Positions 16,894-45,257 of a stretch of 49,284 nucleotides of DNA are shown here, piece after piece (the first letter of the stretch is position 1; the number at the start of each line of letters is the position of its first letter). Origin of the DNA: a virus; IMG/VR virus record IMGVR_UViG_3300031555_003080, positions 1 to 49,284 of that record; one strand, given 5' to 3'. The notes under the pieces are model-generated. The model ran no database searches and was not told the DNA's origin. It saw only the letters and a program-made list of their open reading frames with translations. The position numbers were made by a program, and so were the translations under genes.

Positions 16894-17567
16894 TTGATAT
16901 AAAAAAAGATGTAAAAATACAAGACTTATATAATTATTATTATATGATTTCATTGTATAATTTAATAAAATTTTATAATTGTAAATGGGAATTTTTATCT
17001 ATTAATGATAAAAATTTTTTAAATGGCACTAATCTTAAATATGATGATTTTTCTGTTAATAAATATTTAAGATTATATCAAAATGAGAAAATAAAATTAG
17101 CAGAAGATATTATAAATAATGGAATGTATTTTCCATATTTTGTATATGGACTTCCTGATGAACAAATAGATGATAATTCTGTAAGCATTGCTTTAGGAAA
17201 ACATAGATATTATAGTAAATTACTTTATCAAAATAAGTATGGTAAAATTGACACTAAATTTTTATTCATCTATGTTCCTAATAAACTTCCTCAAAATACT
17301 CCTATAGGTTTTAATAATTGTTTTTATAATTTAGACTCTGAAGGAAATTTAACTTTACATGATACAATTTTTGTTAATTCTAAAACTGAATTAATGAAAT
17401 ATTTTGATCGATTTGGAGGAAGTCTATCTGTTTTATTTTCCGATAATAGGATTAAAACCAATCCCATATTAAATGATGAAAATCTTTTTTCTCAATTTAT
17501 TAATGCTCCTTTAGATGAAAATAACATTCTTTTTAAGTATATTCCTAGTTCTGTTGACTTAAAATGA
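16890..17567 (+). CDS. ParB/Srx-like domain protein (paralog 1)
   Basis: 225 aa and extremely AT-rich. The motif EDIINNGMYFPYFVYG...ALGKHRYYSKL parallels DIVENGMYVPFLFGE...NGSHRLNSL in the 28280 gene, and resembles the ParB/sulfiredoxin DGHHR box. Confidence 0.55.
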   Translation: MIDIKKDVKIQDLYNYYYMISLYNLIKFYNCKWEFLSINDKNFLNGTNLKYDDFSVNKYLRLYQNEKIKLAEDIINNGMYFPYFVYGLPDEQIDDNSVSIALGKHRYYSKLLYQNKYGKIDTKFLFIYVPNKLPQNTPIGFNNCFYNLDSEGNLTLHDTIFVNSKTELMKYFDRFGGSLSVLFSDNRIKTNPILNDENLFSQFINAPLDENNILFKYIPSSVDLK

Positions 17568-17582
17568 AAAATATGTTATAAT
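17554..17582 (+). promoter_or_regulatory. sigma70-type promoter (TTGACT, 17-nt spacer, TG-extended TATAAT) for the NeuB-like gene
   Basis: TTGACT at 17554-17559, a 17-nt spacer ending ATGT, and TATAAT at 17577-17582. The -35 hexamer overlaps the last codons of the preceding ORF. Confidence 0.6.
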
Positions 17583-17603
17583 AAAGAAAAAGGAGTGTGT
17601 TAA

Positions 17604-18428
17604 ATGTATATTATTGCTGAAATTGGTATTAATCATAATGGAAATATTGAGACTGCTTTAGAAATGATTAAAGCAGCAAAAGATGCTGGAGCAACTTGTG
17701 TAAAATTTCAAAAAAGAAATCCTGACGTTTGCGTTCCAGAAGATCAAAAAAATAAACCTAAGACATTTCTTGGAGAGGAAATGACTTATTTAGAATATAA
17801 AAAGAAGATTGAATTTGGAAAAGAGGAATACGATCAAATTAATGCTCTTTGCAAAGAACTTCACATTGATTGGACTGCAAGTGTTTGGGACATGGATAGC
17901 GTTAATTTTATGCTTTGGTATAAAAATGATATTCCTTTTATAAAAATTCCAAGTGCATTGATTACAGATATTGAATTATTAAAAGCTGTTGATGCAACTG
18001 GAATCCCAATTCTTATGTCTAATGGAATGAGTTCTCAAGAACAAATTGATAAAGCTATTTCTTCTTTAACTCATTTAAGCGGGCTAATGCATTGTAATAG
18101 CTCTTATCCTTGCAATCCAAAAGAATTGGATTTAAATGTAATTAAAACTTATAAAACCATTTATCCAGGTCTCACAATAGGCTATAGTGGCCATGAGGTT
18201 GGACATTTCCCTACCTGTTTAGCTGTTGCCGCAGGTGCTCAAATTATTGAAAGACATTTTACTTTAGATAATAATATGGAAGGCACCGATCAAAAAGCAA
18301 GCTTAGATAAAAAGCATTTCGAAGCAATGTGCAAAGATATTTAGGGAATAGAAGAAATTATGGGGGGATATTTACCTAAAGTTTATCCCGCTGAACAAGA
18401 AGTTGCTAAAAAATTAAGAAAGGAATGA
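17604..18428 (+). CDS. NeuB-family (sialic / nonulosonic acid synthase-like) protein lacking a SAF domain, interrupted by in-frame TAG at 18342-18344
   Basis: N-terminal IIAEIGINHNG and the ..GYSGHE...IIERHFTLD..MEGTDQKASL.. motifs are typical of NeuB/PseI/SpsE. After the TAG the same frame continues GIEEIMGGYLPKVYPAEQEVAKKLRKE, matching the NeuB region IR.vE..mG.GiK.v.PaEq....rkS, before TGA at 18426-18428. Confidence 0.65.
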
Positions 18429-19160: not shown

Positions 19161-19205
19161 AAGGGATACTAATCATATGATTAGTATCCCTTTTTTTGTT
19201 TTTAT
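19161..19205. terminator. bidirectional rho-independent terminator
   Basis: Perfect 15-bp stem AAGGGATACTAATCA / TGATTAGTATCCCTT with a T-run on the + strand and an A/T-rich tract on the other side. It lies between convergent genes. Confidence 0.85.
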
Positions 19206-19912
19206 TCAAGAATTCGATTATAATTAATCCATGCATTCCTTACAGTATCATATTGTTTCATTGGAAAGAAAAGAACGTCATCATTTTCAAAAATAATATT
19301 GTCTTTATTTACAATTTTAATTTCTCCAATATTAATCAATAAACTTGGAGGTAAAAATAAAAAAGTTTTATGTTTTTGAAGAGGATCAATTGCTTTCTCA
19401 AAGGAAGAACGAAGGGTTTGACCATCAAACATATTTCCATCGGTTAAATGATAACATAGACATCTTTTAACGATATTAATATAGTTTAAATGATTAACTC
19501 TAACTCGTCTTTCGCCTCCAGCAATTTTAATGATAATATTATCATCTTGAATATTTTTCTTAATTTCTTTTAATACATCAATGATTTCTTCTCTATCCAA
19601 TGGTTTCATTAGAAAATAATCAACTCTTGCTTTTGCAGCTAAATGAGCTACAGAGGGGTCGCTACTTAAATAAATAAAACGAGCACCAACATCAATCTTT
19701 TTCATTCGACTTCCTAATTCTAAAACGTCCTCTTTAGAGTCCATATCCATAATATAAATATCATAACTCCCTGGCACAGTAATAAAAGTGTCAGGATCAT
19801 TAAAATAAGATACTTTAGCCATCGCTTTAACATCAATTAAAAAATCTTGAGTTATGCTTTTTAAATATTCGGTATCCTCTTTTATATCACTATAAATTGC
19901 AATAGATAACAT
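19202..19912 (-). CDS. response regulator with receiver domain and LytTR DNA-binding domain (AgrA/LytR family)
   Basis: The N-terminus has IAIYSD...DIYIMDMD (phospho-acceptor Asp), ..YLSSDPS.. and ..LMKP.. The C-terminal region (from IKIAGGERRVRVNHLNYIN, running on through LFLPPSLLIN) looks like a LytTR domain. There is no adjacent histidine kinase. Confidence 0.75.
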   Translation of the reverse strand: MLSIAIYSDIKEDTEYLKSITQDFLIDVKAMAKVSYFNDPDTFITVPGSYDIYIMDMDSKEDVLELGSRMKKIDVGARFIYLSSDPSVAHLAAKARVDYFLMKPLDREEIIDVLKEIKKNIQDDNIIIKIAGGERRVRVNHLNYINIVKRCLCYHLTDGNMFDGQTLRSSFEKAIDPLQKHKTFLFLPPSLLINIGEIKIVNKDNIIFENDDVLFFPMKQYDTVRNAWINYNRILE

Positions 19913-19963: not shown

Positions 19964-20240
19964 AATAATTTTGTGATAAAAACAAATAAAATCCTACTTG
20001 CGTTTTTGAAATGAAAAATTAAAAATGTGAATTTGCAATCAAAAATAAAATTTGTGTAGGCGAAAAATTATCCAAAATTTTTGTGAGTTCTTGAGATTTA
20101 TCGTGCGCCATTAAAACTCATATAATAATGGAAGGGTGAGAGAGAAAAATATTTTAACAAAGGAGGGCGCCTATATGAATTATAATTACCCTTAGTCACA
20201 GTTTCAAACTCAATCTGTTGGATATGGAGGTTACAGGCCA

Positions 20241-20603
20241 GTGCCACAGTATCCGCAATGGGTTCAAACTACAAATACTTCTCAACCAGTGAGACCGGTA
20301 TCCTCGATTGAAGAAGTAAAAGCCTGCCCGATAGATTTCGATGGTTCAGTATTTTATTTCGCTGATGTGGCCAATAAGCGAATTTATACTAAACAAATCA
20401 ATCTTGATGGAACTGTATCAATCAATTTATATGAATTAAAAACTGACCAGCCTGCTGACTCGTTTCAATATGTAACTAAACAAGAATTTGAAAATGTTGT
20501 AGCTCAATTGTATAATACTTTTAATCCGTTACTAAAACCAGTAGAAGATGTACAGCAGCCTGCGGCACAGCCTACACAACAAAAATCAACTTTTGAATTT
20601 TAA
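20241..20603 (+). CDS. hypothetical protein (120 aa)
   Basis: GTG start preceded by GGAGG. No recognisable motif. Confidence 0.5.
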   Translation: MPQYPQWVQTTNTSQPVRPVSSIEEVKACPIDFDGSVFYFADVANKRIYTKQINLDGTVSINLYELKTDQPADSFQYVTKQEFENVVAQLYNTFNPLLKPVEDVQQPAAQPTQQKSTFEF

Positions 20604-22087: not shown

Positions 22088-22660
22088 ATGTCTATTGAAA
22101 GAATGAAAACAATGAAAGAAGCTTTTATGTGTGCCGTTGAAGGTCAGATGTATAATCTTGCCGAGGTTGATGCAGAAGAGCTTGGTGAAGTTGTAGATAT
22201 GATTAAAGATTTAAGTGAAGCAATTTATTATTGTGAAGTAACAAAAGCAATGGAAGAATCTGAAAAGAATGGTAGTCAAGAGTCAATGTACTACACTCCA
22301 ATGTATTATTCCGATCGCGGAAGCGGAAACGGCAGGTCTTCATCTAATAGTAATTCCACCTCTTCTGGATCGATGAATGGAAATAATGGTACTAGTAGTT
22401 CACAGTATTATGAAAGAGAATATCCTCATGCATTTATGGACGGAAGAGAAGGAAAGAGTTATCGTTCAAGAAGAATGTATATGGAAGCTAAAGAAACTAA
22501 ACAAGATAAAGCATCACAAATGAGAGAGTTAGAAAAGTATATGCAAGAATTAACTCAAGATGTTGTTGAAATGGTTGAAGGTTCTTCTCAAGAAGAAAAG
22601 AGTTATTTAAGTAAAAAGATTTCTGCACTTGCAACAAAACTTTCTCAATTAAGTGATTAA
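22088..22660 (+). CDS. hypothetical low-complexity protein (about 190 aa)
   Basis: RBS AAAGGAGG, then ATG (MSIERM..). Central Ser/Asn/Gly-rich low-complexity segment. Confidence 0.5.
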   Translation: MSIERMKTMKEAFMCAVEGQMYNLAEVDAEELGEVVDMIKDLSEAIYYCEVTKAMEESEKNGSQESMYYTPMYYSDRGSGNGRSSSNSNSTSSGSMNGNNGTSSSQYYEREYPHAFMDGREGKSYRSRRMYMEAKETKQDKASQMRELEKYMQELTQDVVEMVEGSSQEEKSYLSKKISALATKLSQLSD

Positions 22661-22685
22661 AATTAACGGAGAAGATTGGAAGATT

Positions 22686-22916
22686 ATGTTAGCGTCTTCC
22701 AATCACCCTTCTTTGCAACGTCCAAATGGTTCTTTCACTCTTGGATGTTGTGATGATAATTTAAAAACTATTTATATTGCGGATGGGCTTACGGATTTTT
22801 ATTTTAAGAAAGTTTTGTGTCATGAGCTTGTTCATGCGTGTATGTATAGTTATAATGTCGAATTAAATGATTATCAAGAAGAAGTTTTAGCTGATTTAAT
22901 AGCCACTTATGGATAG
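22686..22916 (+). CDS. small HExxH zinc-metallopeptidase-like protein (ImmA/SprT-like?)
   Basis: Contains CHELVHACMY (HExxH). The start is uncertain (GTG at 22653 or ATG at 22686). It ends with TAG. Confidence 0.4.
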   Translation: MLASSNHPSLQRPNGSFTLGCCDDNLKTIYIADGLTDFYFKKVLCHELVHACMYSYNVELNDYQEEVLADLIATYG

Positions 22917-22970
22917 GAAATAATCTCTATAACAAATACAATTTTTTGTAGATTGCATAATTGCAAATAA

Positions 22971-24060: not shown

Positions 24061-25011
24061 ATGGCTAATCTAGTTAAAGCTGCCGATATTAGCTTAGATT
24101 CATCTTCTTGGTACCAAAGACTAAGGGCAATTCAATCAAGAATTGAAACAGGCGCTTGGACTGGAGTTACTATGACTTTGACCACTGACCCCGGTATTAA
24201 TACCGGGGCAATGGCCTTAGATGATCATTTAAATAATTTAATTTCAGCTATTTCAGCAGCTACTTCAAATGTTTTTTTGGCTTATGCCGACAAATCACAA
24301 TTACCGAGTTCAGTGTCTCCAGGCACACTAATTAAACAAATTACTTATGATGGAATTGATGCCACTTTAGATTCCATGGAATAGATTTGTAGTAATTGTT
24401 CAACATATCAGACATTCGCTAATAACAGTGGCGATTCGACATATACTACTTATAATAATACTTGTGCAACCAACAGCACTTATGAAAATACCTGTGATAC
24501 TAACTCAACATATTCAGATACCTGTGGAACTAACTCAACGTATTCAGATACCTGTGATACTAACTCAACATATTCAGATACCTGTGATACTTATTCTACT
24601 TATTCTGATACTTGTGCAACTTATTCCACTTATTCAGAAATTGCTACAAATGGTACTGAGATTACAGGTACAGCATATTCAACTGAAAATGCAAATTTAA
24701 GTGTTGCTTCTGGAGCCTATAGTTATAATTGTACTAATTATTGTGCTACTTATAATACAAATGACACATATCTAGAAAGTCAAACTTATGACACTTATTT
24801 AGAGAGTTTGACATATGAAACATATTTAGAAAGCTTAACCTATGAGACTTATTTAGAGAGTTTAATTTGTGAAACTTATGCTGAATCTTTAACTTATTCA
24901 ACATATCTTGAATCTCAAGTTTGCGCGACATATGCAGAGTCTCAAGTATATTCAACTTTTACTCAAAGCGCAGGAAATTCTACAGATGCTACATTTGCAG
25001 TTGTGACTTAA
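24061..25011 (+). CDS. candidate RiPP precursor-like gene: 107-aa N-terminal part, in-frame TAG (24382-24384), then a 209-codon Cys/Tyr/Ser/Thr/Asp-rich tandem-repeat region
   Basis: RBS AAGGAGGG before the ATG at 24061. Past the TAG the same frame stays open to TAA at 25009-25011 and contains no ATG or GTG. It encodes six TC(D/A/G)T(N/Y)STY(S/E)(D/N/E) decapeptide repeats followed by TY(E/D/S)TY(L/A)ES(L/Q) nonapeptide repeats. The repeats differ by synonymous codons (Ser as agt/agc/tct/tca, Leu as tta/ttg/cta/ctt, Glu as gag/gaa), indicating selection at the peptide level. Confidence 0.55.
24385..25011 (+). repeat. tandem 30-nt and 27-nt coding repeats (decapeptide and nonapeptide units)
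   Basis: Direct repeats such as cagatacctgtgatactaactcaacatatt (three near-identical copies) and acttatttagagagtttgacatatgaaacatat-type units. Confidence 0.8.
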
Positions 25012-25044
25012 GCTTTCAATTAAGAGAAAAAGGAGTTTAATAAA

Positions 25045-34827: not shown

Positions 34828-35041
34828 CCTTTTCTTCCTCCTCAAACTCATACTTTAATACGCCTGGGCGCTCATTGTCCCAGAAGGTAGTATGACCATC
34901 ACAATCGGGATTAGTGCAAGCATATACATACTGAGCAGGATAAGAGGTTAATACCATGCCAGTGTGACGCATTTCTGCGCCACACTTTTCACAGTATGGA
35001 ATTTCAATATATGCGCGTTTAATATATCTACGCTTAAGCAT
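34820..35041 (-). CDS. small zinc-ribbon protein
   Basis: CEKCG...CTNPDCDG (Cx2C...Cx2C). The start is set at the second ATG, which has GGAGG. It overlaps the polymerase stop by 8 nt. Confidence 0.45.
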   Translation of the reverse strand: MLKRRYIKRAYIEIPYCEKCGAEMRHTGMVLTSYPAQYVYACTNPDCDGHTTFWDNERPGVLKYEFEEEEKDV

Positions 35042-38000
35042 CTTCTTCAATTCCTCCTTGATAACGAGCATCTTTTAAAATTAATTCACCATCCGGCAGA
35101 ATTGCATCAATTTTATAAAGCTGATGACCACCAGAAGATGCATATTTCTTAGGAATGAAGTTATCACCAGAACGGAAACCCTGAACGACAATCATGTTGC
35201 CACGATTAAACCAAGATTTCTCAACAACGTGCTTAACTCCGTCTTCTCCTTTTTCAGAAATCTGTTTATCAAATAAAGAGAAGTATTCCTTTCTAAATTT
35301 AACTTCAACAACACCAGTGGTTGTTAAGATTGTTGCTGTAGAACGAGTTTTATTCTTCGCAATACATGTGCCGCAAATCTTATGAAGCTTAAACATTTTA
35401 ACTTCTGTGCTGTTTCGAGTTACAAAAGTCTTTTCAATTTCTGGCTCTTCTGGAAGTGAGAAGAAATCCACGAAACCATATCTATCTGTATTAACATCTT
35501 TTAATTCATGGTCATGATAATAGAAACACAAAACTTCCATTTCCCAAGCGGAGATAGTTCCCTTTGCATATTTATTCCAATCTTCCAAGAAGATTTTGTT
35601 ATTTAATGCTTCAAGAATTCCATCTTTATCACTTGCAATCCAGTTTCTAAAAACATCCATCCAAGGCTGATAAACTTTCTTATCCCACTGCTTCATATCA
35701 AGCTTAAAGTTTTCACTCATCAGCTCATCCTGACCAATTTCAACCAAGAAATTAATTGCTCTTTCATCAAGATTATAGTGAGTAGCAGTTCCTTTACAGA
35801 TAGCTTTCAAATAACGATTAAACTCATAAATTCTACGAGCCATAATCTGTTCATCAGTTGCTTCTGGCAGAAGTCCATGCTTAATTAAACCACCCATATT
35901 CTGTAAAGTCAGACGCTTTTTCTTATCACAAGTTTCCCAGATATACCAAGCCATACACATCTTACGATCCATCATGTCGTCAAATGCACCGCCCTTAATA
36001 AGGGAAATCATGGCCTGCTTGCCAGGCTTAACTCGATTTAAGAAATCACGAGGAGAAATATATGGACGATTTGCAATGATTGCATCAACCACATCATCAC
36101 CTACGTTCAGCATGCCCTTTAAACCAAACAGGATACGATTATTTTCAACGTCAGGTGCAAAACCGAATAAAGACTTGTTAATATTTGCCAAACTAACATT
36201 AATACCCTTACTACGGATATCTCCAATAGCTTTAGCAACCTTACCATAATCGGTACTCATGGTTCTACGAACTTTTGCTTTACCATCTGGCAAATCTTCA
36301 AAAGTCACGCCTTCAGATAAATCTTGAGCTTCTGGGTCATAAATATCTACAACTTCTTCTTCGCTACTATCTTCAAGAGAACCACTATTAACAATCAAGC
36401 ATGCAGTATCCCAATAAATAGGATTAAACTTCATAGCCAAAAAGATTGTTTGAATACCAACAAAAGAATAAGGTAGAGAGTGATTCAAGCTAAATGCATA
36501 ACCTAACTGGGGTGCAATCGCATTCTCCCAGAAATAGTCTGCAACTCGCTTATCATCAAATCTTCCATAAACCTGCTCACGTAGTTCGGGAATCTTTGAC
36601 ATCTGCTTCTTACCAACAATCTTACGAGCATTATTCGCTTCACCTAAAGTGAAGTTTGCCACATTCATAAGAAGCTCCATCATCTGCTCCTGAATTGCAC
36701 AACATCCCCAATACTGGTCACTATATTTGTGCATAATTGCTCGCTGTTCATCATTAAAACCAGCGTCTCTCATTTCCTTATCAAAAACTTCAAGACCCTG
36801 TTGCTGAATACGAACATATCTATCCTGCTGAGACTCCTTGCCTTTTTCAGACATAAGTCTCATCATAGCATTTGCGGCAGTCATCTCCATAGGATTCTGA
36901 CACTTTAACTTCTTTGCAATTGCCAAACCTACGCCGGTTGAGAACTGAAAGATATCCATAACATCACCGGCAGCCAGATGATCCCAGATGCCCTGTTCAG
37001 TTGTATCAATTACTTCTGGATGGATATATTTATTATAAATCTCACGAAGAGTTAAATCAGTTTCAATTTCATTATCTCCCTGTAACAATTCAAAACACTG
37101 AATAATCTTATCAGAAATTTCAGTTACAAGGAAGTCATATTTTGTGTCGCCTGCCGCTTCTGCTTTATGCAGGTCATAACAAGTAATCAATTCTCCATTT
37201 GGAGCTTTCATAAAGCTTGCAGTCTGGAATGGATCGTCACCATAAAGGATTGCGCCAGATGCATGGATACCACGCTTATTCACAAGTCCTTCAATACTGA
37301 TAATAATATCCAACAGACCAGGATACTGATTTACTTCTCTGATAAATGCCGTAACAGGCTTGCGTCCTTTTTCTTCATCGCCATATACAACTTCTTGAAT
37401 AGACCACAAGAAACCACGCTCCTGTGGAATCAAAGAACTCATATACTGGGCGATGTCAACATCGATTCCTTCTGGATAATCATCGCTTCGATAACCGCGA
37501 CAAGCTGTGAGTACAGCTGATTTCGTTCCTTCTGTTCCGAAAGTTGCGACTTGAACCAGTCCCAGCTCTCCTCGCTCTTTACGAATCGCTCTGAAGATTG
37601 CTGGTCGCTTACTCGGTGCAAGGTCAATGTCGATATCGGGCAACTCTGCTCTTTCCTTATTAAGGAAACGCCAGTAAGGTAGCTCCCATCTGATTGGGTC
37701 GAGCTGGGTAATGCCCAAGAGGTAGTTAGACAGAAATCCTGTGGATGATCCTCGACCTGGGCCAACAATCGATCCACACTCCCAGAATAAGTCGATATAG
37801 TGTTTAAAGGTGTTAAAATAAGCGAATAGGCAGTCATTTAATTTTGCTCCAATATCAATAATAACATCTGCTTCAGTTTCAAGTCTATCCCAATAAACAG
37901 GATTTTCTTGAAGCCCCTTATCCCATAAACTCTTTAAACACTCTTGGATCCAGTATCTCTCTTGAGGTTCATTAGAAGTGATAAGAGTCTGAATAAGCTT

Positions 38001-39029
38001 CCATCTATGATCAAAATTGTCCATGATAAGACCAGGAACCAAACTCCAATCCCCAATCTCATAATTAGTTACTTCAACTTTTGGAATCATTTGTTTATTT
38101 TCCAAAGAATAAGAAGTTACTTTATCTTGCATTTCTAATGTGTTATCCAGAATTTCATGGATGAAATCATTATCACCATATGCAAGATTTAAAAGTTCAA
38201 AGACTTCCTCAGAGTCCATAAGACGAGAGAACTCATAGAAGTCATCAACTTCTCGCTCACCATTTTTAGAATTAAGATAAGCCTTATGTACTTGTCTTTC
38301 TGCTTTTGTTAAATAATGAGCGTCAGTACCAACTACAAGTTTTACATCAAAAGCTTCACCAATTCGCTTTGTTCTGCGATTGACGGCAATTTGATCATCT
38401 TTTGTAGATGGTGCAATTTCCAAATAAAAATCTTCACCGAAGATAGATTTACAAAATGTTACAAAATTGTGAATCTTACCCAGGTGAAGTTGAGCAGTGT
38501 CGTAATCTCTTACAGATTCAGCTTCCTCTGCGGCAATAATTTCAGAACCCAATTCTCCGCCGATACAAGCTGTTGTTGCAATTACATGGCCTTTATAACG
38601 ACTCATGATATCCGCAAGCTCAGACTTCAATAACGGCACACGTTCCATCTTACGATCGACATAACTATTACGCCATGCTTGTGTACTCATTTCTCTCAAT
38701 GCTTTATGCCCAATTGCATCTTTTGCAATCAAAATAAAGTGATAATACTTTTGACCTCTATCTCTTGTATCAGTAAGATAAATCTCATTACCAAGAGCAA
38801 TTACAAAGTCAGGATGCTTATCTTTAATCTTTTTTGCATACTGATTAACTTCCATATGAGCAGAAAGACATTCGTGGTCAGTAATTGCTATACCACTTAA
38901 TCCCAACTCAATAGCCTTGTCAATCAAAGCAGTCGGACGATTGATACAGTCCAGCAAACGAATATTTGAATACATTGTATGGTTGTGACAACCAAAATAA
39001 GGTCTGTGAATCCCGGAATTAACTCTCAT
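35034..39029 (-). CDS. dnaE: DNA polymerase III alpha subunit, DnaE-type (N-terminal PHP domain, C-terminal OB fold)
   Basis: 1331 aa. The N-terminus HNHTMYSNIRLLDCI...GLSGIAITDHECLSAHMEV is a PHP domain. There is a long polymerase core and a C-terminal OB-like region. RBS AAAGGAG. Confidence 0.85.
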   Translation of the reverse strand: MRVNSGIHRPYFGCHNHTMYSNIRLLDCINRPTALIDKAIELGLSGIAITDHECLSAHMEVNQYAKKIKDKHPDFVIALGNEIYLTDTRDRGQKYYHFILIAKDAIGHKALREMSTQAWRNSYVDRKMERVPLLKSELADIMSRYKGHVIATTACIGGELGSEIIAAEEAESVRDYDTAQLHLGKIHNFVTFCKSIFGEDFYLEIAPSTKDDQIAVNRRTKRIGEAFDVKLVVGTDAHYLTKAERQVHKAYLNSKNGEREVDDFYEFSRLMDSEEVFELLNLAYGDNDFIHEILDNTLEMQDKVTSYSLENKQMIPKVEVTNYEIGDWSLVPGLIMDNFDHRWKLIQTLITSNEPQERYWIQECLKSLWDKGLQENPVYWDRLETEADVIIDIGAKLNDCLFAYFNTFKHYIDLFWECGSIVGPGRGSSTGFLSNYLLGITQLDPIRWELPYWRFLNKERAELPDIDIDLAPSKRPAIFRAIRKERGELGLVQVATFGTEGTKSAVLTACRGYRSDDYPEGIDVDIAQYMSSLIPQERGFLWSIQEVVYGDEEKGRKPVTAFIREVNQYPGLLDIIISIEGLVNKRGIHASGAILYGDDPFQTASFMKAPNGELITCYDLHKAEAAGDTKYDFLVTEISDKIIQCFELLQGDNEIETDLTLREIYNKYIHPEVIDTTEQGIWDHLAAGDVMDIFQFSTGVGLAIAKKLKCQNPMEMTAANAMMRLMSEKGKESQQDRYVRIQQQGLEVFDKEMRDAGFNDEQRAIMHKYSDQYWGCCAIQEQMMELLMNVANFTLGEANNARKIVGKKQMSKIPELREQVYGRFDDKRVADYFWENAIAPQLGYAFSLNHSLPYSFVGIQTIFLAMKFNPIYWDTACLIVNSGSLEDSSEEEVVDIYDPEAQDLSEGVTFEDLPDGKAKVRRTMSTDYGKVAKAIGDIRSKGINVSLANINKSLFGFAPDVENNRILFGLKGMLNVGDDVVDAIIANRPYISPRDFLNRVKPGKQAMISLIKGGAFDDMMDRKMCMAWYIWETCDKKKRLTLQNMGGLIKHGLLPEATDEQIMARRIYEFNRYLKAICKGTATHYNLDERAINFLVEIGQDELMSENFKLDMKQWDKKVYQPWMDVFRNWIASDKDGILEALNNKIFLEDWNKYAKGTISAWEMEVLCFYYHDHELKDVNTDRYGFVDFFSLPEEPEIEKTFVTRNSTEVKMFKLHKICGTCIAKNKTRSTATILTTTGVVEVKFRKEYFSLFDKQISEKGEDGVKHVVEKSWFNRGNMIVVQGFRSGDNFIPKKYASSGGHQLYKIDAILPDGELILKDARYQGGIEEDA

Positions 39030-39073
39030 TCGGCTACTCCTTTCATCATTTACTTTTTAATCTTTATACTTAT

Positions 39074-39102
39074 ATTATAACATAAATTTTTGGTAATGTC
39101 AA
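39074..39102 (-). promoter_or_regulatory. consensus sigma70 promoter (TTGACA, 17-nt spacer, TG-extended TATAAT) driving dnaE
   Basis: The reverse complement reads TTGACAttaccaaaaatttatgtTATAAT. The -10 is at + coordinates 39074-39079 and the -35 at 39097-39102. Confidence 0.7.
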
Positions 39103-39386
39103 TACCATTCACCGAGGTTGCTCAGCAACTGTCGGTCAAGCTCAATCTGCCCTTTGAGATATGCAACAATGGCATCTCTAACTTTATGAAGTTCTTCCAT
39201 ATCTGTAAAAGTTTGATTTGTAGTGCATGTAAGTTGAGATTCAAGGTTATCAATACGAGTGTTTATATCTGCGAAAATGCAATGAACACTTCCCTTAAGA
39301 TTTTCCGCCTTACTAGCATCTTTAAGGAACATATTATCTCCAAGAACTTCATCAAGACTGGCCATTAAATAACTTACATCAATCAT
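39099..39386 (-). CDS. hypothetical protein (about 95 aa)
   Basis: The internal ATG at 39386 overlaps the helicase stop as ATGA. The 115-aa track ORF start would overlap by 64 nt. Confidence 0.45.
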   Translation of the reverse strand: MIDVSYLMASLDEVLGDNMFLKDASKAENLKGSVHCIFADINTRIDNLESQLTCTTNQTFTDMEELHKVRDAIVAYLKGQIELDRQLLSNLGEWY

Positions 39387-40561
39387 CTGAAATTCCTCAC
39401 AATCACAAGCTTCTCCTTGGCACGTGTCGCCGCAGTATACAACCATCTATCATGATCATTGCCACGTAAGAACTCTTCAAGTACCAGCACTTTATCATAT
39501 TCACTACCCTGTGCTTTATGGCAAGTAATACAATAGCCATAATCAAAAGTTAACGGTCTAAATTGCTTAGGAAAACGCTTAAAGTTTTTCTCTGTTACTG
39601 TTGGCTCTCCAGTAGTCAATAGTTTATAGTCGATATTTAAATCTCTAAAATATAGGTCATGAGGAGAAGTCTGCACATCCAAATCTGTATAATCATCCGG
39701 CAGAAAATCGGCAATCATTTGAGGTTTTAAGAACGGATGATTATGATTGAATCTAATATTTGAAAGAGTACCAATAGTACCATTAACGAGAACATCGCCC
39801 GCTTCGGTAACAGTTTCCCAGTCATTACGAAGACAAATAATCTTATCTCCCTCTACTGGAATATTATCTTCTACTCCAAACAACATCTTTCTCATGCCAG
39901 TATTAACATCTCTACGAGTAAGGTTTTTTGCAACAATAATCTGATCGGCCCATCCATACATGCCGCCGACCATATCTTTCTGATCGATAACTTGCACTTC
40001 ATTACCCTTAAACAAAGATAAGGATTTGCCGTTTCGGATATCCATAGTAAGACGAATGATTTCACTTTCTTGAGCCTGTCTCATAATTTCATCAAGGAAA
40101 ATATGAGGATTGTAAAGAACCTGATTATCTTCTCCGATAGGAGGAAGCTGGAACGGGTCACCGAGGCAAATTACATGAATCTTGTGAGAAAGTAAAAGTT
40201 CCCAAATTTCTTTAGGAAGCATTGAAATTTCATCTACTACAATTAACTTATAAGGCCAATCAAGAGGACGCTTAACTTTGTGATAAAAAGTTCCATCGGC
40301 TCTTGGAAAGGACTGATAGAGAAGTCTATGTGCTGTCATAGCATTAGGGCAACCTTTTTCACGAAGAACTTTTGCCGCCTTGCCTGTATAAGCAATATAA
40401 CAAACATAGTCTTCATCGATATCGAGTGCATTTACAATAAATTTAACAAGAGTGGATTTACCAGTACCAGCATATCCAGCAATACAAGTCCAAGGCTCAT
40501 GATTCTTATATCGCTCGATGGCAATCTTTAATCCTTCCTCTTGCTTTTTTGTTAAAACCAT
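39383..40561 (-). CDS. SF1 DNA helicase, Dda/RecD/Pif1-like
   Basis: Walker A AGYAGTGKST, Walker B LIVVDEISML, GDPFQLPPI, and C-terminal ..GYCITCHKAQGSEYD. Confidence 0.8.
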   Translation of the reverse strand: MVLTKKQEEGLKIAIERYKNHEPWTCIAGYAGTGKSTLVKFIVNALDIDEDYVCYIAYTGKAAKVLREKGCPNAMTAHRLLYQSFPRADGTFYHKVKRPLDWPYKLIVVDEISMLPKEIWELLLSHKIHVICLGDPFQLPPIGEDNQVLYNPHIFLDEIMRQAQESEIIRLTMDIRNGKSLSLFKGNEVQVIDQKDMVGGMYGWADQIIVAKNLTRRDVNTGMRKMLFGVEDNIPVEGDKIICLRNDWETVTEAGDVLVNGTIGTLSNIRFNHNHPFLKPQMIADFLPDDYTDLDVQTSPHDLYFRDLNIDYKLLTTGEPTVTEKNFKRFPKQFRPLTFDYGYCITCHKAQGSEYDKVLVLEEFLRGNDHDRWLYTAATRAKEKLVIVRNFR

Positions 40562-40571
40562 TTAAGCCTCC

Positions 40572-41516
40572 TTACTGAATTTCTGCAAGTAAATTCTCGG
40601 AAAAATTCTTAAAAAATCTAATTCTGTTTCTATTAAAGTTTCTATTTGCAGTTAAACCACTAGAATATCTATTACTAAAAAGTTCAATATATTCTTTCTT
40701 TTGGTCTGTTGTTAAATTAAAGCGTCCCAAATCCCATAACAAATGAGGTAAACCTGTTGCTTTAGAACGATTGGTATTAAAGAAGCTTAAGTCTTCAATC
40801 TCATTAAGAAGATTATCAATATAACTACAGTATTTAGTTAATTCCATCGTAGTAAAATCTTCATAAGGAATCTGACTTGTATCTAAATCCTTACTATCCC
40901 CATATTTAATTAAACACATATGTCTAATTAAAGCTAGCTCTAAAGTTTCTGTGTCTAAAGTCATAGTATGCAATGTAGGATTTTCAAGCAAAAGATTAGT
41001 GAAATGTGTTCTAATATGAATATTTCTACTCATACCCTTCGCAATTTCAGATAAAGGCTGACCGCTGTTAATCTTTCTAAAAAGAATTGCATAGTCTTCG
41101 CTATCAGGTGATAGATTCGTGTATTCGGCAATAGACAATTCAGTATTTTTAATCTTAATCTGATACTCTTCTGGCAATTCAGAGAATTTAATTCTACCTT
41201 TATCTCTAATATCTTCGCTTAAAGATTTGTCAGCTCCATTAGAATAGAAAGGAATTTCATCATTCAGAATCTTAAAGATGGTTGTAAGACGCTGCTTGCC
41301 GTCAATAATATCATAACGATTGCCGCTAATAATAGCATGGATTTCAGGAATACGGAAACCAGTTAGCAGAGTATCCCATAAATTCTGTTGCTTTTCCTCA
41401 TTCCACAAATAACATCTTTGAACATCTAAATCTAAATTGATTCTTTTCTGTTGGTATAAAGTATAAATATATTCAATATTATAGCAGGTAGTTTTATATC
41501 TGTTTTTAGTTTCCAT
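40572..41516 (-). CDS. DUF262 / ParB-like nuclease-domain protein (DGQQR-type motif DGKQR)
   Basis: The N-terminal region has IDGKQRLTTIF. RBS AAAGGAG 5 nt upstream. No HNH/DUF1524 C-terminal half is evident. Confidence 0.6.
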   Translation of the reverse strand: METKNRYKTTCYNIEYIYTLYQQKRINLDLDVQRCYLWNEEKQQNLWDTLLTGFRIPEIHAIISGNRYDIIDGKQRLTTIFKILNDEIPFYSNGADKSLSEDIRDKGRIKFSELPEEYQIKIKNTELSIAEYTNLSPDSEDYAILFRKINSGQPLSEIAKGMSRNIHIRTHFTNLLLENPTLHTMTLDTETLELALIRHMCLIKYGDSKDLDTSQIPYEDFTTMELTKYCSYIDNLLNEIEDLSFFNTNRSKATGLPHLLWDLGRFNLTTDQKKEYIELFSNRYSSGLTANRNFNRNRIRFFKNFSENLLAEIQ

Positions 41517-41527
41517 ATTTTCTCCTT

Positions 41528-41809
41528 TCAGTCATGTTTACCAATAACCTCATCAAGAATTTGAATGAAACGCATTAAATCTCTTGTATGCATATCCTTC
41601 ACTCTCTGACGAGCTTCATTTTCAGAGCAACCATGCTTATATTTAAAATCATTAACCTCGGACTGAAAAGCACGAGATTGGTAGTCTTTAAATCTAAAAA
41701 CTAAACTATCAAAAGCAAAACCTTTAGTATGAGCCGCCATGTCGTCCATCGCATTTATCATAACATCATAAGCATGACTTTTTTCTATCGTCTTTTTTAA
41801 ATCACTCAT
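41528..41809 (-). CDS. hypothetical protein (about 93 aa)
   Basis: The internal ATG (MSDLKK) with a GAGGAA RBS overlaps the stop of the upstream gene (ATGA). The track's 41845 start is TTG. Confidence 0.5.
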   Translation of the reverse strand: MSDLKKTIEKSHAYDVMINAMDDMAAHTKGFAFDSLVFRFKDYQSRAFQSEVNDFKYKHGCSENEARQRVKDMHTRDLMRFIQILDEVIGKHD

Positions 41810-41997
41810 TTTCCATTCCTCATTTCTGAACCACAATGTGGGCAATACTTATATTTACCTTGACCGGGAGAAGGCTTCTTGCATCGACTACAACTAATAT
41901 GATGTATAGTTGTATACTCTGGCTCCTCCCAGATACTATCAAGTCTAATCTGCTCTGGCTCTTCAAGCCATTCGGCAGTTTCTTTTTTATTATCCAT
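41806..41997 (-). CDS. small zinc-ribbon protein (63 aa)
   Basis: CSRCKK...CPHCGS. Directly downstream of a consensus promoter. Confidence 0.5.
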   Translation of the reverse strand: MDNKKETAEWLEEPEQIRLDSIWEEPEYTTIHHISCSRCKKPSPGQGKYKYCPHCGSEMRNGK

Positions 41998-42027
41998 ACA
42001 ATCAATCCTTCTTTCTCTTATATATAT

Positions 42028-42056
42028 ATTATAACATAAAAATATAGAAAAATCAA
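42028..42056 (-). promoter_or_regulatory. sigma70 promoter (TTGATT, 17-nt spacer, TATAAT; conserved ATGTTATAATATATATA core)
   Basis: The reverse complement reads TTGATTtttctatatttttatgtTATAATatatataag. Confidence 0.65.
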
Positions 42057-42153
42057 TTTAGGAAGTTTTTAGTTCAAAAATAGTTAGAGCCTTTTTCGAT
42101 TTGGGATGACGATGCACATGACTGTCACCGGCCGGAGCAAGTTCCATGAAACG

Positions 42154-42186
42154 AAAAAAACGGTCTATATGTTTCCATATAGACCG
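42154..42186 (-). terminator. rho-independent terminator (minus strand)
   Basis: On the minus strand: CGGTCTATAT ggaaac ATATAGACCG followed by TTTTTTT. Confidence 0.75.
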
Positions 42187-42192
42187 TTGAGA

Positions 42193-43035
42193 TTAATTAT
42201 TTACAAAATAATTGTAAGCTTTTTCAGCATTGGTTTGTCTGATTGCGTAGTAATTAGAGTTGCAACGCTCATAACATTTAGCAAATGCCAATGCTGCATC
42301 TCTTTCGTTAGTCAATGCTAAAAATGAATCGTAGTTAAATCCTTTTTTATAAGCATATCCAAAAGTATCTAACTCATATTCGATAGTATCTCTTAAGAAA
42401 TCACACTGTTCGGCAAGTCCTGCTCCCCAGATTTCGCTGTAACCTCTACTCCATTGGCACATACCATAGTAGTTTTTGCCATATAAAGTATATTGGATGT
42501 TGAGTGTTTGTCCACCAACTTCAGCCATTAAATTTCCCATGATACCTGCACATACATAGTCATTCCAACCCAAATCTTTCATGTATAACCAAATCTCTGT
42601 TGCTGCAGGATATTCAGCTTTTTTAGCTTCCCATTTTGCATCAAAAGATTCTGCATAGAGTTTATCATATTGCGCTTGGTATACATCAATTGCAAGCTGA
42701 GAATTTCCCCATTCTGCTTTCGCAGATTCAATAGGGTGAGATGCTTCAGGCCACTCTAATTTACGAGCAGCTTCAGCTAACTCATGAGCAGTTGCTTGAT
42801 CAGCTTTTTCAACTTCAATTAAGATTTGTAATTGAGCCATAGTGTAAGTTTCCAGATTTGGATCTTCGAATTCAGTCATATAATCCACTTTATGATGTGG
42901 AATATCTACAACTTCTTCTACTACTGGCTCTAATTGAGCGGCTACTGCATTTCCTCCATTTGCATTAGAAGTAAATGCACAACACATTAATACTGTTAGA
43001 ATGGCTAATATAAATGCCATAATTCTCTTCTTCAT
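42193..43035 (-). CDS. secreted lysozyme-like protein (phage-tail-lysozyme-like C-terminal domain)
   Basis: Signal peptide MKKRIMAFILAILTVLMCCAFTSNA. The C-terminal domain has GIMGNLMAEVGG and YGMCQWS, resembling G.xGN...ESGG / QW lysozyme-like families. Confidence 0.45.
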   Translation of the reverse strand: MKKRIMAFILAILTVLMCCAFTSNANGGNAVAAQLEPVVEEVVDIPHHKVDYMTEFEDPNLETYTMAQLQILIEVEKADQATAHELAEAARKLEWPEASHPIESAKAEWGNSQLAIDVYQAQYDKLYAESFDAKWEAKKAEYPAATEIWLYMKDLGWNDYVCAGIMGNLMAEVGGQTLNIQYTLYGKNYYGMCQWSRGYSEIWGAGLAEQCDFLRDTIEYELDTFGYAYKKGFNYDSFLALTNERDAALAFAKCYERCNSNYYAIRQTNAEKAYNYFVNN

Positions 43036-43084
43036 TTTTATTTCTCCTTCTTGTTGTTATTAGGCAACAAGTCAGGGCATGTAA

Positions 43085-44830
43085 TTAAAAGTAATAATCG
43101 TTTCTTCCAATAATTTCGTAATCAGTAATCATAAATTGCGGAATTCCCCAATTGCTCCGCGTGCAAGTTCCTACTGCGTTAATAATTACATAACCTAAAT
43201 CTGAATGTAAAAGTTCATATTCTTCTTCAGACGACTTGAACTTGACTAGCGAACTCCCGTCTTCAAGCTGGATGTTTAGAGTGGGTTTGCCTTTTTCCAA
43301 ACCAAACAATCTTAGTTGCTTACCGTATATTCTCAAACCTTCAATGGCGATGAGGGGATCTTCAACCCCTTTACCCCAGATCTTTTCTTCATCGGCAATC
43401 TCAGAAAATGCTCGAGAAGATAAGTCTTTGGCGCCATCCCAAATCAGGTCTACTGAATATATGGGAGCGCAGTCGAAATCCTTGTAGGCTTCATTAACAT
43501 ATTGAACAAGAGCTTCATAATTCTCTTCTGGAAAACTTACACCAAAAGCCATTGCGTGACCTTGTGCATAATCAACAAGTCCAGATTGTTCCAATAGGTC
43601 TCTGAGGCTACCAAGATTTGCTTTATCGTATCCTCTGCCGGACCCTTGCCACTTAACCTTTCCATCCTCTTCGACTTTATTTAGAATTAAGATAGGTCTG
43701 CAGTAAGTGTCCAATAATCCATTTGCAATCAAACCAGTTAGATTTTTATCTGCTGCGTATTTGGGATCTAATCTAATTGCTAAGATTTTATTTTCAAGTA
43801 AATTTTCTTTTTCAATAGTCTTTAAGACAGCATCCATTGCATTGTCTTTAGACTTTGTTTGTCTATTCTTAACATTCTTACAAGTTCTTACAGCTTGTTC
43901 CACACGAGTTTCAAACTGACCTTTACATCCTCGTTTTGTAGATGGAACAGTTTTATAAGCCAAGAACTCAATCATAGACTCAAAAACTACTTGTTTTTCC
44001 GACTGAGTGCCGGAACGAGTAATTGCGTTAATATAAGGGGCAATATACCATGCAATATTGAATGGTGTTAACGCTTTGCCCTGAAAGTGAAAGTTATCCT
44101 CTGCCACCATAGTTTTCAATAGTGGATTTCTGAAACCTTGCATTCCTTTTAGGATAATCTGGCGAATCTCAAAATCCTTTAACGGCATGACATCCGCGAT
44201 AATGCCTGTTGTTGCTAAATCGACATAATCATCGGCATATGATGTGCCAAGTAATTCATCCATATAGCAACAGAACTTATAAACTACGCCTGCACCAGAA
44301 AGTGCTTTTGTGGGATAATCACACATTTGATTGTTAATTACACACGCATATTCTGAATATTTTTCAGCTTCGTGGTGATCAAGAACCAAAACATCAATTC
44401 CTCGATTATGAAGTTCTTCATGCTGTTCATAATCATTAGAACTTGAGTCTGGGGCGATGACGAGTTTAACGTCTTCGGGAATCGTGTCGGTTAGCAATCC
44501 ATGTTGCTTACCATCGTGGATACGATAGGAAATTTTTGTCTGAACAAAATGGGGGAATAAACAGTTCAGATAGTTTATGAGTATTGCGGACGATGTATAA
44601 CCATCGCAGTCACTATCCACCTGAATGAAGATTTTGTCATTTTGTCCGACGTGTTTCATGAGCATTTGGACGCCCTCATGCATATGTTCTAATTTAAGGG
44701 GGTCTACAATGTCATTTTGACTTGGATATTTAAATCTATCCATGTCTTCGAGTTTAATACCTCTGTTATGTAGCACCTGTTCTACGGCACTCATGGCCTC
44801 ATCTCTAGGTGCAATAAGTTGATATCTCAT
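43085..44830 (-). CDS. RecJ-like DHH-family single-strand DNA exonuclease
   Basis: DHH motifs DSDCDGYTS (I), VIAPDSSSND (II) and LVLDHHE (III). RBS GGAAGGAGG. Confidence 0.75.
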   Translation of the reverse strand: MRYQLIAPRDEAMSAVEQVLHNRGIKLEDMDRFKYPSQNDIVDPLKLEHMHEGVQMLMKHVGQNDKIFIQVDSDCDGYTSSAILINYLNCLFPHFVQTKISYRIHDGKQHGLLTDTIPEDVKLVIAPDSSSNDYEQHEELHNRGIDVLVLDHHEAEKYSEYACVINNQMCDYPTKALSGAGVVYKFCCYMDELLGTSYADDYVDLATTGIIADVMPLKDFEIRQIILKGMQGFRNPLLKTMVAEDNFHFQGKALTPFNIAWYIAPYINAITRSGTQSEKQVVFESMIEFLAYKTVPSTKRGCKGQFETRVEQAVRTCKNVKNRQTKSKDNAMDAVLKTIEKENLLENKILAIRLDPKYAADKNLTGLIANGLLDTYCRPILILNKVEEDGKVKWQGSGRGYDKANLGSLRDLLEQSGLVDYAQGHAMAFGVSFPEENYEALVQYVNEAYKDFDCAPIYSVDLIWDGAKDLSSRAFSEIADEEKIWGKGVEDPLIAIEGLRIYGKQLRLFGLEKGKPTLNIQLEDGSSLVKFKSSEEEYELLHSDLGYVIINAVGTCTRSNWGIPQFMITDYEIIGRNDYYF

Positions 44831-44912
44831 ATGAAATCAACCTCCTTCCAGAGTATCAAACTCCCACTTATAATTTGAATTTTCTTTCAAATAAGTTCAC
44901 CTAACTTTACCT

Positions 44913-45257
44913 TTAAAATGGTAGAGGGAGTTCATCGGAAATATGAAGGTTTCCTTCTCCCCAAAAGCGAACCGCTGAGAAAGGAAAGCAAATCATGCCT
45001 GGAGCAATAATTGTCCTATATACATCATAATCAATATTTCTTTCAATATAAGAGATGTTACAACGGTTGCCGCGAGATGAATCATTTGCTCCAGCTACTT
45101 TCCAAATATCTCCATTTTCAAATACAGCATAAGCACCATATTTAGAAAAATGATTTTTTGTAACAGGAATTTTCATTCGTTCATAATTGTCAATTATTGT
45201 TTTTAATTGTTCAAGTCCTTTAGAATAATCATCGTTATACCATATAATGCCTTTCAC
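44913..45257 (-). CDS. hypothetical protein (114 aa)
   Basis: ORF in an operon. Its start overlaps the primase stop. Confidence 0.5.
   Translation of the reverse strand: MKGIIWYNDDYSKGLEQLKTIIDNYERMKIPVTKNHFSKYGAYAVFENGDIWKVAGANDSSRGNRCNISYIERNIDYDVYRTIIAPGMICFPFSAVRFWGEGNLHISDELPLPF

Follow-up and report, generated by a model that had tools for sequence, protein, structure and literature searches.

An in-frame TAG, most likely read as glutamine, in the SAF-less NeuB-family gene of a metagenomic phage

In animals, KDN (2-keto-3-deoxynononic acid) and N-acetylneuraminic acid (Neu5Ac) are made by way of KDN-9-P and Neu5Ac-9-P, with a synthase, a HAD phosphatase and a cytidine monophosphate (CMP)-sugar synthetase acting in turn; the KDN-9-P route has also been reported for the KDN of Bacteroides thetaiotaomicron. 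In the NeuB synthase of Neisseria meningitidis the SAF domain donates an arginine to the active site of the neighbouring subunit. The 'morons' of phages, accessory units with their own promoters that are transcribed independently inside late operons, are classical. Here we describe a gene of the NeuB family in a stretch of 49,284 nucleotides of viral DNA (IMG/VR record IMGVR_UViG_3300031555_003080), hereafter the window, which is part of a 50-200 kb contig and has 35% GC; all coordinates are window positions (1-49,284) and the features are collected in Table 1. The gene contains an in-frame TAG at codon 247. We consider it likely that it encodes a functional NeuB without a SAF domain, that its TAG is read as glutamine, and that it is the remnant of a cassette found more completely in related phages (designated below by L numbers).

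The reading of TAG as glutamine (genetic code 15) is established in gut phages (10.1101/2021.08.26.457843, a preprint; PMC9523058 for crAss-like phages; PMC10607447). The phages of the phAss-1 paper have genomes of 135 kb, come from the gut, read TAG as glutamine and carry tRNA-Sup-CTA genes, and some recoded relatives of phAss-1 are without tRNA-Sup-CTA (PMC10607447).

A NeuB-family synthase without a SAF domain

The open reading frame (ORF) starts at ATG 17604 and runs for 246 codons to TAG 18342-18344, past which the frame stays open for another 27 codons and ends at TGA 18426-18428, giving 274 residues in total; as the first-pass annotation of this DNA had stated, a length of ~274 residues requires readthrough. 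The Pfam model NeuB (PF03102) matched the 274-residue product with an E-value of 5.9e-65 (219.5 bits; cut-off 22.1), the match covering residues 21-255 and model positions 1-238 of 241 and spanning the amber position. The best hidden Markov model (HMM) match was NeuB itself and not an unrelated TIM-barrel family, which bears out the membership in the NeuB/PseI/LegI family that had been claimed. The absence of the SAF (antifreeze-like) domain was confirmed as well: no Pfam match to it was found in the 274-residue product, and the matches to the NCBIfam models NeuB_NnaB (TIGR03569) and PseI (TIGR03586) end at about model position 270-278 of ~328, that to TIGR03569 at 278 of 329.

The same annotation had called the gene truncated, a description that its relatives contradict. 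Within 5.8 billion proteins, every one of the 120 relatives that match best is equally short (253-287 residues), carries PF03102 as its sole domain and has the same KKLRK(E) end; the closest ones, at 77-97% identity, are 274-276 residues long, and those at 82-97% identity are uninterrupted proteins of 274 residues. In an alignment of 21 sequences the relatives have the C-terminus ...VYPSExEVAKKLRKE in common, and G254, E264, K270, L271 and R272 are invariant (21 of 21). The best solved relative, PDB 6NCS (290 residues, 'N-acetylneuraminic acid synthetase', E 2.8e-35), is built in the same short way and ends soon after the barrel, but it is a distant match (125 bits, compared with 418-614 bits for close relatives); next come the structures of SpsE, N. 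meningitidis NeuB and PseI, with E-values between 1e-28 and 1e-25. Since the relatives are uniformly short and share a C-terminus, and since 6NCS is likewise short, these comparisons identify the protein as a member of a natural SAF-less NeuB subfamily (253-287 residues, one solved structure) and not as a truncated NeuB. The subfamily appears large because all 120 of the best relatives listed are short; no characterised substrate for it turned up here.

With N. meningitidis SiaC/NeuB (PDB 1XUU/1XUZ) and PseI (PDB 8H2C) the phage protein shares the Pfam domain, the TIM-barrel core and the aligned catalytic residues. Residues E25, K53, Q55, K129, S132 and S154 of N. meningitidis NeuB correspond to E6, K34, Q36, K114, S117 and S139 of the phage protein, and Y186, S213, H215, H236 and D247 to Y168, S195, H197, H218 and D229; most of these are invariant in the 21-sequence alignment. 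In the published N. meningitidis NeuB structure H215 and H236 are metal ligands, and the other aligned residues are contacts to phosphoenolpyruvate (PEP) or to the sugar. Canonical NeuB and PseI differ from the phage protein, which has no SAF domain, ends in an invariant basic KKLRK tail, carries leucine in place of E134 and scores below the cut-offs of TIGR03569 and TIGR03586 (the last two points are weighed below). Ahead of the amber codon, dN/dS was 0.04-0.12 for the window compared with L001, L112, L113 and L023; the value against L114 was meaningless owing to indels and was discarded. The gene is intact in related phages, with no sign there of the degradation that would have spoken for a decayed gene, and on this comparative evidence it is real and probably intact here too.

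A promoter-led cassette and its reduced form in the window

The gene stands behind a predicted promoter of the sigma-70/sigma-A type that matches 11 of 12 consensus positions in addition to the TGn element, shares the best score in the 14-21 kb region and overlaps the last codons of the upstream 225-residue gene, just as first described (TTGACT-17-TGnTATAAT). A consensus match alone is weak evidence in DNA this rich in A and T, where promoter-like matches as a class were not enriched (38 found, 33.4 expected). The form TTGAC(T/A)-17-TGnTATAAT is kept, however, before the first cassette gene in seven lineages (the window, L001, L112/L113, L023, L114, L108 and L110), although that first gene differs: it encodes a SPASM protein in L114 and L110, a cytidylyltransferase in L108, and NeuB in the window, L001, L112/L113 and L023. 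With this conservation in all the relatives examined, whichever gene comes first, the predicted promoter is more than a chance match.

The DNA of the window and that of L001 are homologous from precisely the -35 element onwards (17554; 2767 in L001), a mosaic breakpoint. From the -35 element through NeuB and the next gene the two are 91% identical, and the proteins of the gene upstream are 33% identical. The gene that follows NeuB encodes a phi29 gp12-like virion protein of 235 residues. No terminator was predicted between NeuB and this gene (18435), and given that together with the gap of 7 nucleotides the two are presumably co-transcribed; the hairpin at 19161-19192 closes the promoter-NeuB-fibre unit. 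The upstream 225-residue gene is flanking context of the cassette. Just past the bidirectional terminator, on the minus strand (19202-19912), lies a gene for a receiver-domain-like protein with a weak Response_reg match (phrog_8810); L108 and L110 likewise encode proteins with cREC_REC domains, at a distance of a few genes from their NeuB cassettes.

Table 1. Features of the NeuB locus in window coordinates
Feature	Position	Strand	Remarks
Upstream gene, 225 residues	16890..17567	+	ParB/sulfiredoxin-like fold, invariant GKHR; always precedes promoter and cassette
Predicted sigma-70/sigma-A-type promoter	17554..17582	+	-35 TTGACT 17554-17559, 17-nt spacer, extended -10 TGt-TATAAT 17574-17582
Ribosome-binding site AAGGAG	17590..17595	+	8 nt before ATG; kept in relatives
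SAF-less NeuB-family synthase gene	17604..18428	+	Pfam match; 274 residues if TAG = Gln, 246 if TAG = stop
In-frame TAG, codon 247	18342..18344	+	inside last TIM-barrel helix; CAA in five relatives
Post-amber tail	18345..18428	+	end of helix alpha-8 and linker-like tail to KKLRKE, TGA; invariant residues
Gene for virion appendage/decoration-type protein, 235 residues	18435..19142	+	TTG start; begins 7 nt past NeuB stop
Bidirectional intrinsic-terminator-like hairpin	19161..19192		14-bp stem, T-run on both strands

In relatives the same locus holds more genes. The order in L114 and L115 is a homologue of the 225-residue protein (60% identity), a radical-SAM/SPASM protein (280 residues), a CTP_transf_3 cytidylyltransferase (224 residues; best NCBIfam match PseF, E 3.7e-11, followed by CMP-Kdo synthetase models), a mini-HAD protein (100 residues, with a DxDGT motif and a weak match to the EcbF/BcbF capsule phosphatase family), NeuB (274 residues) and a 207-residue protein. 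In L108, L110/L111, L029 and L031 the genes are those for SPASM (not in all), the cytidylyltransferase, a HAD protein fused to a mannose-6-P-isomerase-type cupin, and NeuB; L003 has SPASM and then NeuB. A neighbour census, taken over the two nearest ORFs on each side of a short NeuB at 30 distinct viral or metagenomic loci, counted CTP_transf_3 22 times, Radical_SAM 9, HAD hydrolases 8, methyltransferases about 9 and Maf-type MptE-like proteins 6. The loci for it came from scans of IMG/VR and Joint Genome Institute (JGI) metagenomes with NeuB, which returned relatives of at most 65% identity and served the census but not the test of recoding; tblastn against 50,697 phage records gave three distant NeuB matches, and megablast against the same records found no near-identical phage genome.

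Homologues of the cytidylyltransferase, mini-HAD and SPASM proteins are missing from the window itself, as judged by tblastn, by custom HMMs (all E > 0.01) and by Pfam on about 44 proteins. The first-pass statement that no partner enzymes are visible thus stands for the window (Pfam, cassette HMMs), but the relatives carry such partners at the same locus. Because they hold them behind the same promoter whereas the window is without homologues, NeuB is, on comparative grounds, best described as the sole survivor of a promoter-led four-gene CMP-sugar cassette and not as an orphan acquisition. The NeuB-only form occurs in the window and in four close lineages, and since purifying selection acts on it in no fewer than four diverged lineages, the synthase probably remains useful on its own.

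Taken together, the cassette genes are what a pathway to a CMP-activated ulosonic (sialic-acid-like) sugar would need. As in the KDN-9-P/Neu5Ac-9-P route, relatives pair a short NeuB with a HAD phosphatase and a cytidylyltransferase, sometimes also with a mannose-6-P-isomerase-type cupin, and the recurrence of HAD phosphatase and cupin isomerase partners is why a phosphorylated intermediate fits. They differ from that route in the radical-SAM/SPASM protein, which has no counterpart there, in the weakness of the HMM matches and in the absence of the partners from the window. The unit also resembles a moron: it has a consensus promoter of its own, a terminator closes it, the -35 element marks a mosaic breakpoint and the gene content varies between relatives, but it includes a virion-type structural gene. 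No lysogeny genes were identified in the window. Limited literature searches found no description of a radical-SAM/cytidylyltransferase/HAD/short-NeuB cassette in phage tail modules or of its reduction to NeuB, and those on phage NeuB, nonulosonic acid and KDN synthase gave no account of the cassette.

The TAG codon and the ways to read it

By alignment, the amber codon corresponds to about residue 265 of N. meningitidis NeuB, halfway along the last barrel helix, and residues 261-274 fall on the linker between barrel and SAF domain (aligning to about residue 278), so that a product of 246 residues would lose half of helix alpha-8 together with the invariant basic tail. The first-pass annotation had recorded the amber codon, which most likely is not a defect. 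In DNA alignments codon 247 is CAA (Gln) in L001, L002, L023, L112 and L113, and the NeuB proteins of L001 and L002 are 96-97% identical to that of the window. A mirror case lies 7 nucleotides downstream, where at codon 4 of the next gene the window has CAA but L001 and L002 have TAG, and because the TTG start and N-terminal peptide of that gene are kept in L003, the TAG of L001 and L002 lies within coding sequence. Over the 27 post-amber codons the window and L001 differ by 7 synonymous and 0 non-synonymous changes. From these alignments, the phage most likely belongs to a lineage with reassigned TAG, and its codon 247 most likely stands for glutamine. The peptide expected over codon 247 would then be DI-Q-GIEEIMGGYLPK, and DIQGIEEIMGGYLPK is the predicted peptide that carries glutamine at the TAG position; read as a stop, the codon would end the protein at ...CKDI.

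Reassignment is also visible beyond NeuB. When window proteins were compared with the relatives by tblastn under code 15, 8 of the 13 distinct TAGs of relatives aligned with a glutamine of the window, as did 5 of 7 comparisons of window TAGs with a glutamine in the relative. A minority of the relatives' TAGs stand at other window residues (L001 867, L112 9089 and L112 11841/L113 4085, at T30, K146 and A93); these columns lie in poorly conserved fibre regions, as expected of variable positions. A second TAG of the window (20193-20195) is codon 7 of the gene at 20175-20603 and is CAA in L003; in this gene conservation (68%) extends to the stretch before the GTG start that was called mechanically (20241). 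Codon 48 of NeuB is TAG in L110/L111, and this position is the family-invariant Q48 in PEDQKN. Called genes contain 23 in-frame TAGs in L003, 6 in L108 and 4 in L110, with TAG as terminator in 0 of 65 genes. In the database proteins P0013 and P0027 these TAG codons appear as Q, and the table 11 translation of the loci fails to match them, from which it follows that an independent gene caller chose TAG = Gln for those contigs.

In the window the three ORFs that seem to end in TAG all continue in frame, and a code-15 reading gives 46 genes, terminated by 32 TAA, 14 TGA and 0 TAG; the probability of having no TAG terminators is ~6e-4 if 15% of stops are TAG, a share that is assumed. A tRNA with the anticodon CUA, labelled 'Pyl' by ARAGORN, is encoded at 190-264 of L108, whose NeuB is 66% identical. 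The tRNA begins with UGGGG, like bacterial tRNA-Gln. Pyrrolysine as the reading of TAG, to which the label points, was rejected, since the TAG columns align with glutamine. The tRNA is the first of an array that also has tRNA-Leu, Gly, Lys and Met, and the cytidylyltransferase/HAD-cupin/NeuB cassette lies about 8 kb downstream of it.

The likeness to known code-15 gut phages (phAss-1/Phassvirus, crAss-like phages and the clades of Borges et al.) extends to in-frame TAGs at glutamine positions, the lack of TAG terminators, a tRNA(CUA) in a relative and an SPbeta-like replication module whose DNA polymerase has its best match, among the 50,697 phage records, in phAss-1, a member of the 'Caudoviricetes code 15 clade'. 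The differences are that the polymerases share just 39% identity, that no suppressor tRNA was found in the window, that phAss-1 has no NeuB by tblastn, and that TAG occurs in 41 of 147 phAss-1 ORFs (PMC10607447) as opposed to 4 of the 46 window genes.

Several observations weigh against a functional synthase with a reassigned codon. On the enzyme side, NeuB_NnaB scored higher than PseI (228.3 versus 160 bits), but both scores are below the equivalog cut-offs (399.65 and 340.25, respectively), and E134 of N. meningitidis NeuB is L119 in the phage protein, a sugar pocket unlike that of characterised enzymes; with both scores under threshold and one sugar-side residue different, no substrate class can be given. 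In the relatives the HAD protein and the cytidylyltransferase are weakly assigned (27-43 bits), and a complete pathway is not demonstrated, no CMP-transferase, epimerase, phosphatase or glycosyltransferase being found in the window by Pfam on about 44 proteins or by the cassette HMMs. On the codon side, this genome alone has TAG at codon 247, which a recent CAG-to-TAG nonsense mutation would explain as well; the sites that argue for recoding in this genome are few (4 in-frame TAGs in 15,584 codons, compared with 530 CAA/CAG); and no suppressor tRNA(CUA) was found in the 49-kb window, where ARAGORN and Rfam scans found nothing, or in the fragments of the closest relatives.

The codon-side points, with the loss of three of the four cassette genes, speak for a true stop: a recent nonsense mutation, leaving a gene freshly inactivated or a C-terminally truncated remnant in a decaying cassette. 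We regard this as unlikely. CAA and TAG differ by two bases and the mirror change is found 7 nucleotides downstream in L001 and L002; the TAG at 20193, too, aligns with CAA; the window has zero TAG terminators; NeuB relatives of the same clade hold TAG at an invariant glutamine; and the gene has no other lesion, the differences from L001 in its tail being all synonymous.

Less probable still is partial or regulated suppression, in which TAG would be a stop early in infection and glutamine once a phage suppressor tRNA accumulates, with the active full-length enzyme made late even though the host-type promoter could fire at any time; this would refine the glutamine reading and is compatible with it. 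It would suit a consensus host-type promoter inside a late structural module, and the Borges et al. preprint proposes that recoding can regulate the translation of late-stage and lytic genes (10.1101/2021.08.26.457843). The in-frame TAGs of the window are, moreover, confined to the structural/accessory region at 17-25 kb, and the replication genes are free of them. One lone TAG close to the C-terminus, absent from five close relatives, is not, however, a conserved regulatory feature. Finally, a sequencing or assembly artefact hiding a true CAA or CAG, conceivable for one codon of metagenomic origin, is highly improbable, because a 2,159-nt contig from JGI sample 3300032167 (L022) is 100% identical, TAG included, other fragments of the same phage recur at 99.9-100% identity in three JGI samples, and two adjacent base differences from CAA are atypical of an error. 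Look-ups of window proteins returned short identical pieces, L022 and L024-L026.

Surroundings, proposed pathway and meaning

The window is phage DNA, and the NeuB unit lies in a tail module. This module has a 2,562-residue protein, homologous to a partial ORF of L112 (product listed as 2,557 residues), whose position matches that of the 2,848-residue PhageMin_Tail protein of L114, a tape-measure marker; YadA-head-like and fibre-like proteins follow it. On the minus strand, 29243-48865 is an SPbeta-like replication and nucleotide module with a PolIII-alpha/YorL-type polymerase (1331 residues), a DnaB-like helicase, a superfamily-1 helicase, a DHH phosphoesterase, NrdD and its activase (NrdG), dUTPase, and guanylate-kinase-like, GmrSD_N-like and YorH-like proteins; it also holds a protein with a tail-lysozyme domain (Phage_lysozyme2). 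The anaerobic reductase, together with the sample sources, suggests that the host is a gut anaerobe.

Two other genes with in-frame TAGs lie further downstream. The one at 22653-22970 encodes a small HExxH protein, weakly like DUF6782 and Peptidase_M78, in which TAG 22914-22916 is followed by 17 codons to TAA. The one at 24061-25011 has an N-terminal domain of 107 residues, TAG 24382 and then 208 more open codons, an extension that holds tandem repeats rich in Cys, Ser, Thr and Tyr (a 30-nt unit, five copies, NSTYSDTCDT-like; a 27/54-nt unit, five copies, TYLESLTYE-like). Immediately after it come a radical-SAM gene (25045-26412, CNLNCRYC) and three unannotated genes that extend to 29222, and the whole of 24061-29222 looks like a cluster of a repetitive precursor and its maturase.

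We propose the following course of events for the NeuB unit. A host-type promoter within the tail-fibre module would drive NeuB and, if the two are co-transcribed, the phi29 gp12-like gene. In a gut phage lineage that reads TAG as glutamine, with a glutamine-accepting tRNA(CUA) presumably encoded elsewhere in the phage, the ribosome would pass codon 247 and make the protein of 274 residues. This enzyme would catalyse the metal-dependent condensation of PEP with a hexose or hexosamine, possibly a 6-phosphate; the product would be activated with CMP and could then be transferred to a glycan on a virion fibre or on the host surface. For activation and transfer the lone synthase would depend on host enzymes or on genes outside the window. 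The unit may serve the modification of virion or host-surface glycans. That the KKLRK tail replaces the arginine of the SAF domain in substrate binding is speculation. In its most specific form, the idea is that in recoding phages of the gut Firmicutes type the cassette makes an undescribed CMP-ulosonic acid, which decorates the fibre or decoration protein or remodels the host surface, that selection keeps the lone synthase here because it feeds a host pathway and that the basic tail stands in for the SAF arginine; we offer this whole combination as a doubtful proposal.

Gut phages that use code 15, abundant SAF-less NeuB proteins with one solved structure, and promoter-bearing morons are already known. 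In this locus, the standard-code reading creates a false pseudogene: under table 11, NeuB is called as a fragment of 246 residues, as in the JGI contig L022, and the gene after NeuB is stripped of its N-terminus in L001 and L002; code 15 restores both. The ulosonic-acid cassette that recurs behind its promoter in gut-phage tail modules is a candidate means by which phages direct the glycosylation of virions or host surfaces, in a setting, anaerobic Gram-positive systems, where such chemistry has been little explored. A phage member with clear genetic partners in its relatives is a good entry for defining the substrate of the SAF-less NeuB subfamily.

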